Below, in pieces: positions 2,610 to 28,402 of a stretch of DNA of 64,000 nt. Made by a program: the position numbers and the translations under genes. The number at the start of each line of letters is the position of its first letter. Position 1 is the first letter of the stretch. The DNA comes from a plasmid: assembly GCF_056712565.1 (NCBI RefSeq), contig NZ_JBWXXM010000003.1; one strand, 5' to 3'. The notes below the pieces were generated by a model, which saw only the letters and a list, made by a program, of their open reading frames with translations, had not been told where the DNA came from and did not search any database.

Positions 2610-3563
2610 ATGTACTTAAAGATTCTTGCTACTGCACTCTCAGCTCCTGTAGCGTTTGCTGCACTGGCTTCTGATACTGGGCTTTCTTTTACACCGGAGA
2701 AAATCAGTACGGAGATTGATTTTGGCACTTTAAGTGGCAAGGCCAAAGAACGGGTTTATCTGCCTGAAGAAAAAGGGCGCAAAGCCAGCCAGCTGGACTG
2801 GAAATACAGTAATGCGCCAATTGTCAAGGGGGCATTTAACTGGGATCTGTTACCCAGAGTATCTGTCGGTGCCTCAGGGTGGACAACATTAGCTGGTCGT
2901 GGAGGCAATATGGTGGACAGGGACTGGCTGGATACGAGCAATCCCGGAACCTGGACTGATGAGAGTAAACATCCGAATACCCGTCTAAATTTTGCTAATG
3001 AATTCGACCTGAATATTAAGGGATGGCTCCTGAATCAACCAGACTATCAGTTAGGTCTTATGGCTGGTTACCAGGAAAATCGTTATAGCTTTACAGCAAA
3101 AGGAGGCTCTTATATCTATAGTAGTGAGGGAGGCTTCCGGGATGAAACGGGATCATTTCCAGATGGTGAAAGAGCTATAGGCTACAAACAACACTTTAAA
3201 ATGCCCTATATAGGGTTAACCGGTAATTATCGGTATGATAGCTTTGAGTTCGGGGGGAGTTTCAAATATAGCGGATGGGTGAAGGCATCGGATAATGATG
3301 AGCATTACAACCCTGAGAAAAGGATCACCTATCGTAGCGATGTAAATAATCAGAACTATTACTCTGTCTCACTACATGCTGGTTATTATATTACACCTGC
3401 AGCTAAAGTTTATGTCGAAGGAACATGGAACCGTATTACTAATAAGAAAGGTGATACTTCTCTGTACTCCAGAAATTTGAATATATCTGATCACACCAAA
3501 AATGGTGCAGGCATTGAAAGCTATAACTTTATGACCACAGCTGGTCTGAAGTATTATTTTTAA
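2610..3563 (+). CDS. ompT: omptin-family outer membrane protease (plasmid OmpT)
   Basis: Track ORF 2604-3563; ATG at 2610 preceded by GGAG; signal peptide MYLKILATALSAPVAFA; omptin-like beta-barrel sequence with C-terminal ...TTAGLKYYF. Confidence 0.85.
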   Translation: MYLKILATALSAPVAFAALASDTGLSFTPEKISTEIDFGTLSGKAKERVYLPEEKGRKASQLDWKYSNAPIVKGAFNWDLLPRVSVGASGWTTLAGRGGNMVDRDWLDTSNPGTWTDESKHPNTRLNFANEFDLNIKGWLLNQPDYQLGLMAGYQENRYSFTAKGGSYIYSSEGGFRDETGSFPDGERAIGYKQHFKMPYIGLTGNYRYDSFEFGGSFKYSGWVKASDNDEHYNPEKRITYRSDVNNQNYYSVSLHAGYYITPAAKVYVEGTWNRITNKKGDTSLYSRNLNISDHTKNGAGIESYNFMTTAGLKYYF

Positions 3564-6758: not shown

Positions 6759-7499
6759 ATGAACAATGTCATTCCCCTGCAGAATTCACCAGAACGCGTC
6801 TCCCTGTTACCCATTGCGCCGGGGGTGGATTTTGCAACAGCGCTCTCCCTGAGAAGAATGGCCACTTCCACGGGGGCCACACCGGCCTACCTGCTGGCCC
6901 CGGAAGTGAGTGCCCTTCTTTTCTATATGCCGGATCAGCGTCACCATATGCTGTTCGCCACCCTCTGGAATACCGGAATGCGTATTGGCGAAGCCCGGAT
7001 GCTGACGCCGGAATCATTTGACCTGAATGGAGTAAGACCGTTTGTGCGGATCCTGTCCGAAAAAGTGCGTGCGCGACGCGGACGCCCGCCAAAAGATGAA
7101 GTGCGCCTGGTTCCGCTGACAGATATAAGCTATGTCAGGCAGATGGAAAGCTGGATGATCACCACCCGGCCCCGTCGTCGTGAACCATTATGGGCCGTGA
7201 CCGACGAAACCATGCGCAACTGGCTGAAGCAGGCTGTCAGACGGGCCGAAGCTGACGGAGTACACTTTTCGATTCCGGTCACACCACACACCTTCCGGCA
7301 CAGCTATATCATGCACATGCTCTATCACCGCCAGCCCCGGAAAGTCATCCAGGCACTGGCTGGTCACAGGGATCCACGTTCGATGGAGGTTTATACCAGA
7401 GTGTTTGCACTGGATATGGCTGCCACGCTGGCAGTGCCTTTCACAGGTGACGGGCGGGATGCTGCGGAGATCCTGCGTACACTGCCTCCCCTGAGGTGA
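6759..7499 (+). CDS. int: tyrosine site-specific recombinase/integrase adjacent to RepFIB replicon
   Basis: 246 aa with C-terminal catalytic region ...[14 protein letters not shown]...[14 protein letters not shown] (R..H..R..Y signature of tyrosine recombinases). Confidence 0.75.
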
Positions 7500-7790
7500 C
7501 GGCATACGCGCTTCCTTATATAAGCTGTGGTCAGCAGAACAGACATAACATAAGCTGGAGCATGTATATAAGCTGTAGTGAGTAAGTCATGTTTTATGAA
7601 GGGAGCAATGCCTCAGCATCAGGTTACGGGATCACTTACGTAAGGGACAGGCAGATGGCAGCTCAGCTACAGACAGCACTGCAGGAAACAGAATATAAAC
7701 TGCAGTGAGCAGACCACTCACTGCACCGGTTAATATAAGCTGTAGTCAGTAAAGGAGCGCTCTTCACTGACTACAGTTTATGTTCAGCGG
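7500..7790. repeat. RepFIB iterons (direct repeats of ~ATATAAGCTGTAGTCAG) plus terminal palindrome
   Basis: Repeated ATAAGCTGTGGTCAGC / ATATAAGCTGTAGTGAGT / ATATAAACTGCAGTGAGC / ATATAAGCTGTAGTCAGT copies; palindrome CTGTAGTCAGTAAAGGAGCGCTCTTCACTGACTACAG at ~7741-7780. Confidence 0.65.
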
Positions 7791-8761
7791 GATTTGAAGA
7801 GTTTTTCCAGGTCATCCAGCGTGATGCCCAGTTTCTCAAGCAGGGCAAGCTTCTCCGCCATCTCCGGACTGACTTTTTCCGCAGGTGAAGGTTGCAACGG
7901 ATTTTCCTTACTCTCGTCATTCGGCGCTTTTAACCGGGGACGCCGGTAGTGAATACAGAAGAATTTTGTCCGCCCCCGCTGGATCTCCGTGTAATCAAGA
8001 TATCCAATCTCGCGCAACTGCTCCATTGCCCGTCTGACCGTCTGGTTCTGGGAAAATACAGGAGACTTCAGATTGAGGCGTGCACGCAGCCGCGCCAGCG
8101 ATATCGGTGCCGGATCCCGGGGCAGGCTCTCTATAAAGGTGTAGAGTGCCTGGGCGGACTCCCGTCGCTTCAGGGCATTAATCGCCTTAAGCTGGAGAAG
8201 GACTTTTCTGTCAAACTGGTACAGTTCAAACAGGCGGGGATCGGCCTGTAACTGCACAATATCCCGCTCAGTATCGTAGTAAGCTGACTGTACCAGATGG
8301 GTGATATATTCCCGGGTGTGCTTCTCATCGGTACGGGAAAACGAAATCACGGTACCGGCAATGCGCTTCAGGGAAGGGCTGATGCGCTCACGCAGCCTGC
8401 GGGATGACTGGCTTGAAGGTATACCACACAGTTTTGCAAACTCAACAAAAGGCAGTTCAACTTTGTCACCAATCACGTTATGGCGGGCAAAGGAATGAAT
8501 GATCCCCACCCAGGTCTTGAAATCATTATCCATATCCAGGCGGGGGCCGGTGATCTCAACCTTATCGAATCCCTCAGCACGGGCCAGGGAAAGACGTGTC
8601 AGCTCTTCCGTGGCATCAGTACGTGACAGTGTATTTTTTTTACTGTTCTTCAGTGATTTAAGGGTCGGTACAAAAACGCCCAGACGCATCAGCGCCACAG
8701 GTTGTACGGTGTTGTTATTGTTTGGTGTCAGTGTCACCAGCTCACCGGAGGACTTATCCAC
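7784..8761 (-). CDS. repA: RepFIB replication initiator RepA (iteron-binding Rep)
   Basis: 325 aa; iteron arrays on both flanks; sequence recognised as RepFIB RepA; start appears to be GTG. Confidence 0.85.
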
Positions 8762-8869
8762 CTCGCCGAACAGTTTTTTGATGTTTGAATTTTCGTTTTC
8801 CAGAAAGCCTCCAGCCTGTGGACAGTAAAAGAATAAACAGAAAATCGTGTGTCAGAACTCCGCTAACTG

Positions 8870-9030
8870 ACTGAAGAAAAACCTGCAGCCTGTATTTAAC
8901 AACTGAGTCTGGCATACTGACCATAGTTTATGTCATTAACTTACTTCAGTATATGGATTACTGAATACAGCTTATCATTAGCATGTTACAGTTTATCAGT
9001 AACATGCCACAGCTTATGTGATCGTGGTCC
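8870..9030. repeat. RepFIB iterons, distal set in inverted orientation
   Basis: Repeated ACAGCTTAT / ACAGTTTATC motifs (reverse complement of ATAAGCTGT) in AT-rich region. Confidence 0.5.
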
Positions 9031-24293: not shown

Positions 24294-26495
24294 ATGATGA
24301 TAAGCAAAAAGTATACGCTTTGGGCTCTCAACCCACTGCTTCTTACCATGATGGCGCCAGCAGTCGCTCAACAAACCGATGATGAAACGTTCGTGGTGTC
24401 TGCCAACCGCAGCAATCGCACCGTAGCGGAGATGGCGCAAACCACCTGGGTTATCGAAAACGCCGAACTGGAACAGCAGATTCAGGGCGGCAAAGAGCTT
24501 AAAGACGCACTGGCTCAGCTGATCCCTGGCCTTGACGTCAGCAGCCGGAGCCGCACCAACTACGGTATGAATGTGCGTGGCCGCCCGCTGGTCGTGCTGG
24601 TTGACGGCGTGCGTCTCAACTCTTCACGTACCGACAGCCGACAACTGGACTCTATAGATCCTTTTAATATCGACCATATTGAAGTGATCTCCGGTGCGAC
24701 GTCCCTGTACGGCGGCGGCAGTACCGGTGGCCTGATCAACATCGTGACCAAAAAAGGCCAGCCGGAAACCATGATGGAGTTTGAGGCTGGCACCAAAAGT
24801 GGCTTTAGCAGCAGTAAAGATCACGATGAACGCATTGCCGGAGCTGTCTCCGGCGGAAATGAGCATATCTCCGGACGTCTTTCCGTGGCATATCAGAAAT
24901 TTGGCGGCTGGTTTGACGGTAACGGCGATGCCACCTTGCTTGATAACACCCAGACCGGCCTGCAGTACTCCGATCGGCTGGACATCATGGGAACTGGTAC
25001 GCTGAACATCGATGAATCCCGGCAGCTTCAGTTGATCACACAGTACTATAAAAGCCAGGGCGACGACGATTACGGGCTTAATCTCGGGAAAGGCTTCTCT
25101 GCCATCAGAGGGACCAGCACGCCATTCGTCAGTAACGGGCTGAATTCCGACCGTATTCCCGGCACTGAGCGGCATTTGATCAGCCTGCAGTACTCTGACA
25201 GCGCTTTTCTGGGACAGGAGCTGGTCGGTCAGGTTTACTACCGCGATGAGTCGTTGCGATTCTACCCGTTCCCGACGGTAAATGCGAACAAACAGGTGAC
25301 GGCTTTCTCTTCGTCACAGCAGGACACCGACCAGTACGGCATGAAACTGACTCTGAACAGCAAACCGATGGACGGCTGGCAAATCACCTGGGGGCTGGAT
25401 GCTGATCATGAGCGCTTTACCTCCAACCAGATGTTCTTCGACCTGGCTCAGGCAAGCGCTTCCGGAGGGCTGAACAACAAGAAGATTTACACCACCGGGC
25501 GCTATCCGTCGTATGACATCACCAACCTGGCGGCCTTCCTGCAATCAGGCTATGACATCAATAATCTCTTTACCCTCAACGGTGGCGTACGCTATCAGTA
25601 CACTGAAAACAAGATTGATGATTTCATCGGCTACGCGCAGCAACGGCAGATTGCCGCCGGGAAGGCTACATCCGCCGACGCCATTCCTGGCGGCTCAGTC
25701 GATTACGACAACTTCCTGTTCAACGCCGGTCTGCTGATGCACATCACCGAACGCCAGCAGGCATGGCTCAACTTCTCCCAGGGCGTGGAGCTGCCGGACC
25801 CGGGTAAATACTATGGTCGCGGCATCTATGGTGCTGCAGTGAACGGCCATCTTCCTCTAACAAAGAGTGTGAACGTCAGCGACAGCAAGCTGGAAGGCGT
25901 GAAAGTCGATTCTTATGAGCTGGGCTGGCGCTTTACTGGCAATAATCTGCGTACCCAAATCGCGGCCTACTATTCGATTTCTGATAAGAGCGTGGTGGCG
26001 AATAAAGATCTGACCATCAGCGTGGTGGACGACAAACGCCGTATTTACGGCGTGGAAGGTGCGGTGGACTACCTGATTCCTGATACTGACTGGAGTACCG
26101 GAGTGAACTTCAACGTGCTGAAAACTGAGTCGAAAGTGAACGGTACCTGGCAGAAATACGATGTGAAGACAGCAAGCCCATCAAAAGCGACAGCCTACAT
26201 TGGCTGGGCACCGGACCCGTGGAGTCTGCGCGTGCAGAGCACCACCTCCTTTGACGTGAGCGACGCGCAGGGCTACAAGGTCGATGGCTATACCACCGCG
26301 GATCTGCTCGGCAGTTATCAGCTTCCGGTGGGTACACTCAGCTTCAGCATTGAAAACCTCTTCGACCGTGACTACACCACTGTCTGGGGGCAGCGTGCAC
26401 CACTGTACTACAGCCCGGGTTACGGCCCAGCGTCACTGTACGACTACAAAGGCAGGGGCCGAACCTTTGGTCTGAACTACTCTGTGCTGTTCTGA
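24294..26495 (+). CDS. iutA: IutA, TonB-dependent ferric aerobactin receptor
   Basis: 733 aa with signal peptide, TonB box region, C-terminal ...NYSVLF typical of TonB-dependent receptors. Confidence 0.9.
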   Translation: MMISKKYTLWALNPLLLTMMAPAVAQQTDDETFVVSANRSNRTVAEMAQTTWVIENAELEQQIQGGKELKDALAQLIPGLDVSSRSRTNYGMNVRGRPLVVLVDGVRLNSSRTDSRQLDSIDPFNIDHIEVISGATSLYGGGSTGGLINIVTKKGQPETMMEFEAGTKSGFSSSKDHDERIAGAVSGGNEHISGRLSVAYQKFGGWFDGNGDATLLDNTQTGLQYSDRLDIMGTGTLNIDESRQLQLITQYYKSQGDDDYGLNLGKGFSAIRGTSTPFVSNGLNSDRIPGTERHLISLQYSDSAFLGQELVGQVYYRDESLRFYPFPTVNANKQVTAFSSSQQDTDQYGMKLTLNSKPMDGWQITWGLDADHERFTSNQMFFDLAQASASGGLNNKKIYTTGRYPSYDITNLAAFLQSGYDINNLFTLNGGVRYQYTENKIDDFIGYAQQRQIAAGKATSADAIPGGSVDYDNFLFNAGLLMHITERQQAWLNFSQGVELPDPGKYYGRGIYGAAVNGHLPLTKSVNVSDSKLEGVKVDSYELGWRFTGNNLRTQIAAYYSISDKSVVANKDLTISVVDDKRRIYGVEGAVDYLIPDTDWSTGVNFNVLKTESKVNGTWQKYDVKTASPSKATAYIGWAPDPWSLRVQSTTSFDVSDAQGYKVDGYTTADLLGSYQLPVGTLSFSIENLFDRDYTTVWGQRAPLYYSPGYGPASLYDYKGRGRTFGLNYSVLF

Positions 26496-26564
26496 CCGGT
26501 ATTCCTTTACAACAAAGGTACGCTGATATCAACATGGCCGCTGACAGCCAAGTTGATATCATAT

Positions 26565-26632
26565 AATACACGACATAATCTGTAGTCAGGGAGGATAGAC
26601 TCTTTACTGACTACAGATTATGTCGTGTTCCG
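26565..26632. repeat. palindrome downstream of iutA resembling the RepFIB iteron-proximal palindrome
   Basis: ACACGACATAATCTGTAGTCAGGGAGGATAGACTCTTTACTGACTACAGATTATGTCGTGT; compare 7738-7785 CTGTAGTCAGTAAAGGAGCGCTCTTCACTGACTACAG. Confidence 0.6.
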
Positions 26633-27019
26633 TGCTCATTTCCTCAAAAAATACAAGAAAAGAATTAGTATTCTAACAAAAAGTGAAATAAATTGTATCA
26701 AACTCCCTCTTTTAATCCTGTTGAGTAAATCAGCTTTTGCAATAGGATTGAAAGAGTGTAAGTGGAATCTCTTCCGGATACTCGTTACCACCGTGGCTAG
26801 AATATCTACGGCTGCGGGCCAGTAATAGATTAAGTGATAACAGCTGTCTGGAAATGTAGGGGCGTATCCACTAATCATAATCATTGTGAGATAAATATTA
26901 CGGGGCATTTTATAATGAATAAAATATACTCTCTAAAATATTGTCATATTACCAATACCATGAAGGTGATGCTGCCAACTTACTGATTTAGTGTATGATG
27001 GTGTTTTTGAGGTGCTCCA

Positions 27020-27295
27020 GTGGCTTCTGTTTCTATCAGCTGTCCCTCCTGTTCAGCTACTGACGGGGTGGTGCGTAACGGCAAAAGCACCGCCGGACAT
27101 CAGCGCTATCTCTGCTCTCACTGCCGTAAAACATGGCAACTGCAGTTCACTTACACCGCTTCTCAACCCGGTACGCACCAGAAAATCATTGATATGGCCA
27201 TGAATGGCGTTGGATGCCGGGTAACTGCCCGCATTATGGGCGTTGGCCTCAACACGATTTTACGTCACTTAAAAAACTCAGGCCGCAGTCGGTAA
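27020..27295 (+). CDS. insA: IS1 InsA
   Basis: 91 aa identical to copy 1 InsA. Confidence 0.95.
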
Positions 27296-27717
27296 CCTCG
27301 CGCATACAGCCGGGCAGTGATGTGATTGTCTGCGCTGAAATGGACGAACAGTGGGGCTATGTCGGGGCTAAATCGCGCCAGCGCTGGCTGTTTTACGCGT
27401 ATGACAGTCTCCGGAAGACGGTTGTTGCGCACGTATTCGGTGAACGCACTATGGCGACGCTGGGGCGTCTTATGAGCCTGCTGTCACCCTTTGACGTGGT
27501 GATATGGATGACGGATGGCTGGCCGCTGTATGAATCCCGCCTGAAGGGAAAGCTGCACGTAATCAGCAAGCGATATACGCAGCGAATTGAGCGGCATAAC
27601 CTGAATCTGAGGCAGCACCTGGCACGGCTGGGACGGAAGTCGCTGTCGTTCTCAAAATCGGTGGAGCTGCATGACAAAGTCATCGGGCATTATCTGAACA
27701 TAAAACACTATCAATAA
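27214..27717 (+). CDS. insB: IS1 InsB
   Basis: 167 aa identical to copy 1 InsB. Confidence 0.95.
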
Positions 27718-27727
27718 GTTGGAGTCA

Positions 27728-28402
27728 TTACCGTGCACGGTAACGGGCCATATCAATGAGCAGTTCCTCTCCAATTTTATTTGCCCCTAGAGAGCGGCGA
27801 GTTTTCTTCACTTCAATGACAATCTTCTCTTTCTTCAGAAGAAAATCCTGTCTGGATGATGAACCTGCGAAGCTAGGTGAATTTTCTTCAGGTCTGACAT
27901 CATTAAAATGCAGCAGCAGAAGAGCATGAACAAGATCCTGTACATCATACTCGTCATTAATTTCAAGCGGCGTTCTGTCATTGTATCGTTGCTTTAATTG
28001 ACGACAAAAAGCTGGAAATTTATTGAGTATATTTATAATCAAATCCAGTTCGGCATGTTTTGTTGCTATAGTCGATGCCGTGCCGGAGTAAGTTAAATCG
28101 TCTCTGGCTGCATCAAAAATAGGTTTGTAATGTCTAACCAATCCCTGATAATTACTAGACCAAGCAATCCTTTGTGTATCATTAAAATCTTTGTAGTAAT
28201 CAGATTCCTTTCCATAACTGTCTTCAAGTAACTTTTTTGCTCTTGCAATCCAGTTATTACCTTTAGCCGAATCAATATATTCCTGGCTTCTGTGACTAAA
28301 TGCACTTGTTCCCATATATTTTGTCGACATGACAGAATTGTACTCTTGTTCAAGCACTTCAAATCTTTCAGCTAAGGTCTTCTTCGTCATAGCGCAATCC
28401 AA
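27728..28402 (-). CDS. hypothetical protein with PD-(D/E)xK-like motif; C-terminus and stop codon supplied by IS1 end (probably 3'-truncated)
   Basis: 224 aa; C-terminal region ...LLLLHFNDVRPEE...(25 aa)...KIVIEVKK fits hhhD...hhhExK pattern; stop TAA lies inside IS1 terminal GGTAATGA. Confidence 0.5.
   Translation of the reverse strand: MDCAMTKKTLAERFEVLEQEYNSVMSTKYMGTSAFSHRSQEYIDSAKGNNWIARAKKLLEDSYGKESDYYKDFNDTQRIAWSSNYQGLVRHYKPIFDAARDDLTYSGTASTIATKHAELDLIINILNKFPAFCRQLKQRYNDRTPLEINDEYDVQDLVHALLLLHFNDVRPEENSPSFAGSSSRQDFLLKKEKIVIEVKKTRRSLGANKIGEELLIDMARYRAR

Follow-up and report, generated by a model that had tools for sequence, protein, structure and literature searches.

FIB replicons carry repA between two groups of iterons, the upstream origin iterons BCDD'D'' and the downstream control iterons E-J or E-K (PMC11983097). 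The downstream block alone, carried on a P15A replicon, displaces the FIB replicon, and extra iterons are therefore not necessarily inert (PMC11983097). Together with F incC and P1 incA, the RepFIB EFGHIJ block (PMC11983097) belongs to the control iteron clusters, extra-origin initiator sites that restrain replication by titration or handcuffing, which comprise 5-9 direct repeats beside the rep gene and have a phenotype. We analysed one 64,000-nucleotide stretch (hereafter the window) of a ColV/pS88-type IncFIB virulence plasmid. The site studied here and its surroundings (2 kb) are 100% identical to pECOS88 (NC_011747.1) and many relatives. Annotation transferred from a matching plasmid places sitABCD and iucABCD in the window. 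The resident RepFIB replicon and its neighborhood are laid out as follows.

6760-7500, plus strand: tyrosine recombinase gene (annotation transferred from the matching plasmid)
7518-7752, plus strand: resident downstream (control) iterons F-J (role from PMC11983097)
7733-7783, no strand assigned: E/F inverted iteron pair of the resident RepFIB, immediately past the repA stop (repeats and consensus)
7785-8762, minus strand: RepFIB repA, initiator of the RepB family / Rep_3 (annotation of the matching plasmid)
8917-9019, minus strand: resident upstream (origin) iterons (consensus and matrix scans)

In the resident palindrome, iteron F (7733-7749, plus strand) is paired with iteron E (7767-7783, minus strand) in inverted orientation, and the end of the palindrome abuts the repA stop. 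Iteron F is also the first of the direct array F-J, which runs to 7518. RepA-repressible promoters reportedly lie at the RepFIB repeats, one of them at E/F, according to work by Saul in 1989 and Spiers in 1993. We also considered distant RepFIB-like replicons from Salmonella, Hafnia and three others, whose RepA proteins are 79-91% identical to the query, that of a divergent RepFIB-like replicon on a metagenome contig (ERZ773245 NODE_2258, hereafter L030). Each of them has an inverted pair directly after repA, made of its own iteron variant, which suggests that E/F is an integral, co-evolving part of the replicon. It follows that a copy found elsewhere, such as the one described below, would derive from E/F and not the reverse. 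None of these distant replicons is closer to that copy.

The copy in question lies downstream of iutA, in the following surroundings.

24294-26495, plus strand: iutA, ferric aerobactin receptor gene
26522-26563, plus strand: hairpin directly after the iutA stop, common to chromosomal and E. fergusonii aerobactin loci
26568-26628, no strand assigned: perfect palindrome (arms 22 nt, loop 17 nt), putative E/F inverted iteron pair of RepFIB in the form of an orphan copy
26573-26589, plus strand: left iteron-like 17-mer ACATAATCTGTAGTCAG, E-equivalent, 21.5 bits
26590-26606, plus strand: asymmetric 17-nt spacer GGAGGATAGACTCTTTA, the 3' part of which, AGACTCTTTA, equals the loop of the L002 / E. 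albertii RepFIB allele
26607-26623, minus strand: right iteron-like 17-mer, F-equivalent, same sequence as the left one (matrix and consensus matches)
26648-26760, plus strand: frameshifted 5' fragment of a Tn3-family tnpA
26786-26872, plus strand: right-end remnant of an IS2-like (IS3-family) element
26916-26965, plus strand: start of a vat-like SPATE autotransporter gene, ATG and about 17 codons (MNKIYSLKYCHITNTMK), truncated by IS1 at 26966
26966-27733, plus strand: IS1, with the left end read directly and the right end inferred from the 768-bp length of IS1

The palindrome starts 73 nt past the iutA stop on the sense strand, and a repeat search returned its arms (26568-26589 and 26607-26628) as 100% complementary, with 17 nt between them. 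The earlier note had called it a near-copy of the palindrome at the RepFIB boundary, which is confirmed by the shared core, by alignment against shuffled sequences and by an independent BLAST pairing. The core CTGTAGTCAG has exactly 4 copies in the 64-kb window, at 7740/7767 and 26580/26607, all of which are inner arms of these two palindromes and of no other. Local alignment of 26540-26660 with 7700-7820 gave scores of 56 for the repA-sense strand and 51 for the opposite one, compared with a mean of 15.9 (sd 2.4, maximum 34) among 500 shuffles. When the spacer between iutA and IS1 was searched by BLAST against PLSDB (72,556 plasmids) and 5,426 E. coli genomes, independently of the resident replicon, a 49-bp part of the palindrome matched at 87.8% identity (E = 5e-7 in PLSDB and 2e-6 in the E. 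coli genomes). The matching partner was the palindrome that other RepFIB plasmids carry immediately behind their repA stop. The sequence had been quoted correctly in the earlier note; its exact span is now 26568-26628, and the best alignment is on the repA-sense (minus) strand. The likeness is confined to about 49-51 bp, with the BLAST matches within query positions 18-68 of 90, and no homology was found past the palindrome edges when the flanks of the iutA-side and RepFIB palindromes were aligned. The left flank is the tail of iutA, with no repA-like sequence, and the copy is not located at a repA stop, unlike E/F. The similarity is indeed limited to the core, which the earlier note had named as one sign against its reading, but this core is the complete E/F unit.

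The two arms also qualify as iterons when scored. Each has zero mismatches to the consensus AYATAANCTGTAGTSAG, and the left 17-mer shares 16 of its 17 positions with resident iteron E. With up to 3 mismatches allowed, the IUPAC iteron consensus has 9 sites in the 64 kb, namely 7 resident iterons and both arms, where 0.97 would be expected by chance. We then scanned both strands of the window with a weight matrix derived solely from the ten resident RepFIB iterons, leaving out the two arms. The arms rank 5th and 6th, at 21.5 bits each, well within the range of the real iterons (16.6-25.1 bits), and the best non-iteron site reaches 13.2. Apart from the two arms, the consensus and matrix scans found no iteron-like site in the window outside 7100-9020. 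The spacer is 17 nt long both in the iutA-side copy and in 11 aligned RepFIB copies; the pattern used on metagenomes had the spacer fixed at 17 nt, and the matches listed include about 15 loop alleles.

Judged by its arms, geometry and loop, the iutA-side palindrome is homologous to the E/F iteron pair of RepFIB replicons (IncFIB, of the P307 / F / pO157 type). The two have in common the 10-bp inner core, the consensus 17-mer, the inverted orientation, the 17-nt spacer and part of the loop (AGACTCTTTA, as in L002 / E. albertii). They differ in that the iutA-side pair stands alone, 17.8-19 kb from repA, with neither repA nor an iteron array adjacent to it and without being part of a repeat array. 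Its arms are identical, carry T at iteron position 7 and have their symmetry extended by ACACG/CGTGT. The resemblance is real and specific, and its most probable explanation is an ordinary one, a known element preserved as a fossil at a new location.

We next asked which RepFIB allele the copy resembles. It is identical to the resident allele at 39/49 positions (41/51 by hand count) and to the L002 / E. albertii type allele at 42/49 (44/51 by hand count). The hand count against L030 is 45/51, with GATAGA shared in the loop and TTATGT in the right tail. The greater closeness to non-resident RepFIB alleles argues against a recent duplication inside this plasmid, and these counts show that the copy is not from the resident allele. 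The earlier proposal of a duplicated iteron-like site therefore stands as far as an iteron-like, RepFIB-related site is concerned, given the arm scores and the same 17-nt spacer; it does not stand as a duplicate of the resident pair. Three features of the copy are each present in 0 of the roughly 15 alleles sampled: a T at position 7 of the iteron in each arm, GGAGGAT as one half of the loop, and the symmetric outward extension ACACG/CGTGT. The ten resident iterons have G or A at position 7, never T. The E and F arms differ from each other in all RepFIB alleles but L030, and are identical in the iutA-side copy. A donor allele combining T at position 7 with the loop GGAGGATAGACTCTTTA was not found among the plasmid, genome and metagenome matches listed. 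Taken as a whole, we consider it very probable that the iutA-side palindrome is derived from an E/F pair.

The surroundings of the palindrome are of mixed origin. The hairpin at 26522-26563 shows three pairs that have changed on both sides between lineages (AU<->UA) with pairing kept, and one Salmonella aerobactin locus has a different, G+C-rich hairpin in the same place. Chromosomal aerobactin loci of the sat type and of the O145 type (95.6% and 83.7% identity in the iutA 3' end, respectively) stop matching at about 26555-26571, the value of ~26571 being a reading by eye, and the aerobactin locus of an E. fergusonii plasmid diverges at the same point. On the other side, the tnpA fragment is 93-95% identical over about 40-45 bp to the tnpA start in E. 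coli NZ_CP166875.1 and C. freundii NZ_OM982652.1, and the SPATE fragment is 88% identical to the 5' end of vat. The RepFIB-like stretch, about 50 bp long, therefore stands isolated, with the end of the aerobactin module on one side and mobile-element debris on the other. As placed by these breakpoints, the palindrome is outside the conserved aerobactin module, a few bases past the point where plasmid and chromosomal loci part, and at a mosaic junction. This agrees with the recombination junction suggested in the earlier note, since chromosomal homology ends there and is followed by pieces of tnpA, an IS2-like element, a SPATE gene and IS1.

Several minor features of this region were recorded. 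An open reading frame at 26625-26825 starts inside the right palindrome arm. The SPATE fragment echoes the iutA-sat arrangement of chromosomal islands (L004), where sat is downstream of iutA. In the chromosomal aerobactin tail of L004, the segment ACTGAATAACATTATGTCTGTT at 3458-3480 resembles the right arm and lies at a similar distance from the hairpin. Homology between this ACTGAATAACATTATGTCTGTT and ACTGACTACAGATTATGTCGTGTT of the right half of the palindrome was considered and is marginal, with 1.7% of 1000 shuffles reaching the score, and it may be due to chance; no iteron-matrix match was found in the chromosomal aerobactin tail. A near-consensus CTGACA-N15-TATAAT at 26541-26567, within and just past the iutA 3' hairpin, is aimed into the palindrome; its spacer is 15 nt and it was not called by the promoter scan. 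Neither inspection by eye nor the promoter scan revealed a convincing -35/-10 pair within the palindrome.

The distribution of the palindrome was searched in 72,556 PLSDB plasmids, 5,426 E. coli genomes, one genome each of 100,044 species, and metagenomes. Among the matches listed, palindromes of this type are confined to two settings, the 3' side of repA and that of iutA, unlike dispersed palindromic repeats (REP / ERIC / MITE-like), which are scattered in many copies over varied surroundings. No chromosomal copy is among the matches listed from PLSDB, genomes and metagenomes. The iutA-side site is present in at least 1,440 PLSDB records, of E. coli ColV-type and Klebsiella hypervirulence plasmids, and aerobactin loci on other plasmids are without the palindrome. 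Apart from Escherichia RepFIB contigs, the scan of species genomes returned nothing but two mis-binned MAGs and unrelated palindromes, the metagenome scan returned RepFIB alleles and at least 15 iutA-linked copies, and the scan of a phage collection gave no match. On one metagenome contig (OHKX01006816.1, L055, positions 1-50), the iutA-side palindrome lies at the contig end with its loop flipped relative to the flank, which is probably an assembly artefact at the palindrome, though it may be loop inversion. A full-text literature search, to which the classical RepFIB papers were out of reach, returned no paper on an iteron-like site downstream of iutA.

In Klebsiella pneumoniae hypervirulence plasmids the full spacer is present as far as 26882, with about 98% identity, and homology with the Klebsiella iuc plasmids stops at 26882, just past the IS2-like remnant. 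Because these plasmids share the spacer mosaic, the mosaic predates the split between the E. coli and Klebsiella plasmid lineages. The Klebsiella virulence plasmids listed have 2 matching places (the iutA site only), compared with 4 in ColV plasmids. Their right arm is damaged by a 6-bp AGATTA duplication and variable substitutions. Among Klebsiella-type variants, 3 of about 6 events in about 220 bp fall within the 61-bp palindrome (hand count), and from these comparisons we see no sign of purifying selection on the palindrome in Klebsiella plasmids. Among themselves, the E. coli copies are 99-100% identical across the entire spacer, with the 22-nt arms perfectly symmetric in all copies listed, and this near-clonality means that constraint cannot be judged within E. 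coli.

How the palindrome came to resemble an E/F pair, and what it does after iutA, can be explained in several ways. Chance has in its favor only that the match is short; it is refuted by the core counts, the shuffles, the consensus and matrix scans and the BLAST E-values, and we regard it as having practically no likelihood. Convergence within a Tn3-family fragment, with the palindrome as part of a resolution or regulatory site upstream of tnpA, draws on the fact that the palindrome stops about 20 nt short of tnpA-homologous sequence, but the asymmetric loop common to the palindrome and RepFIB E/F favors shared descent of the two, as does the BLAST E-value (5e-7), and convergence seems very improbable to us. 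As a candidate source, two related transposons were inspected and rejected, as they have an ordinary tnpR-tnpA intergenic region with no likeness to the palindrome. A role at the RNA level, in which the palindrome would serve iutA as a terminator or as a 3' stem-loop governing mRNA stability, is suggested by its position shortly after the iutA stop on the sense strand and by the fold of 26490-26660 (-66.3 kcal/mol in total, z = -8.6), in which it forms a stem of 22 perfect pairs. It shares with Rho-independent terminators a stem-loop downstream of a gene, and differs from them by its AT-rich 22-bp stem, by the lack of a U-tract (the tail after the stem reads UCCGUGCUC) and by being missing from orthologous loci. 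The terminator scan of 26300-27100 found no terminator, and there is no U-run after either hairpin. Moreover, the chromosomal, E. fergusonii, Salmonella and other Klebsiella aerobactin loci are without the palindrome, while three of four lineages have in common the covarying hairpin after iutA. A perfect 22-bp RNA duplex is a target of RNase III more likely than a stabilizer, which also counts against such a role. An Rfam search gave only matches to miRNA-precursor hairpins, at 20-23 bits against gathering scores of 74-171. A role at the RNA level thus appears improbable. The hairpin at 26522-26563 is probably the likelier 3' element of iutA, and the palindrome is most likely neither needed for iutA nor its terminator. 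The earlier suggestion that it acts as the iutA terminator is therefore not upheld, and the palindrome should not be annotated as such.

A more serious alternative is that the palindrome works as an auxiliary RepA site, in which the arms would bind the resident RepA and titrate the initiator or handcuff with the origin iterons, and the site would be kept for that purpose. Copy number would then be slightly lower, or incompatibility would be exerted against incoming RepFIB plasmids. Since both arms are still good iterons, they could bind RepA and would then add a minor sink of 2 sites to about 11 resident ones. Consistent with this are the scores of both arms within the range of real iterons and the E/F geometry, as well as the fact that the palindrome is perfect in E. 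coli copies co-resident with RepFIB (4 matching places per ColV record listed) and damaged in those Klebsiella plasmids in which no E. coli-type E/F pair is seen. The downstream FIB iterons are, in addition, control and incompatibility determinants that displace the FIB replicon from a P15A vector (PMC11983097). If RepA binds, the site would be like the control iteron clusters in restraining replication from outside the origin; it differs from them in being one isolated inverted pair. Against this alternative, T at position 7 is found in none of the ten resident iterons, two single-copy cis sites would add little to about 11 resident ones, and aerobactin loci on other plasmids do without the palindrome. 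The adjacent junk fragments are also conserved equally with the palindrome, so that its conservation can be explained by recent common descent. We therefore look on an auxiliary RepA site, with its effects on copy number or incompatibility, as unlikely. It is likewise doubtful that a live RepA site has been kept on ColV-type plasmids for copy-number control or for incompatibility against rival RepFIB plasmids. If this were true, the site would physically tie the aerobactin module to the control circuit of the replicon, and its decay in Klebsiella would reflect loss of the matching RepA. RepA binding would make it an overlooked cis element for copy number or incompatibility of major virulence plasmids, and would give it a bearing on plasmid-curing designs based on FIB iterons (PMC11983097).

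Our preferred explanation, which we consider reasonably probable in its full form, is that the palindrome is a passive, E/F-derived relic of an old rearrangement. The donor would have been a replicon of the RepFIB clade with an allele other than that of the present resident. Rearrangements may have joined the end of the aerobactin module to transposon and IS fragments and stranded an E/F unit beside iutA, at a time preceding the split between the ColV-type plasmids of E. coli and the iuc plasmids of Klebsiella. During or after capture, the arms would have been made perfectly symmetric, probably by template switching between them, and rearrangement end-points may have gathered at the base of the palindrome. 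Today the palindrome is most likely carried passively.

Template-switch mutagenesis is known from E. coli in the form of quasi-palindrome correction and of palindrome-associated deletion end-points. The palindrome after iutA is like these in its perfect arm symmetry and in having boundaries at the stem base, and like quasi-palindrome correction in that its symmetric part reaches into sequence not homologous to RepFIB. It differs from the correction observed in E. coli in being a pattern read from the finished sequence, with no intermediate forms found. Instead of homogenization of the arms, the donor may have been an unsampled RepFIB allele. Perfect arms, and the trimming of RepFIB-homologous sequence almost exactly to both palindrome edges, could also reflect selection to keep the site, which would count against a relic. 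As a relic, the site would be a historical marker, indicating that the plasmid aerobactin module once adjoined a different replicon of the RepFIB clade, and that the sequence beside iutA had become a mosaic by the time the E. coli and Klebsiella lineages parted.

Two further observations concern the replicons themselves. The top iteron-like site outside the recognized repeats (13.2 bits) is ATATAAGCTATGTCAGG at 7123-7139, in the recombinase gene, and may be the extra 'K' repeat mentioned in PMC11983097. In L030 (8360-8420), the usual TGA stop of repA has been lost and translation stops at a TAA within iteron E; the identical E and F arms of this replicon read AACATAAGCTGTAGTCAG.
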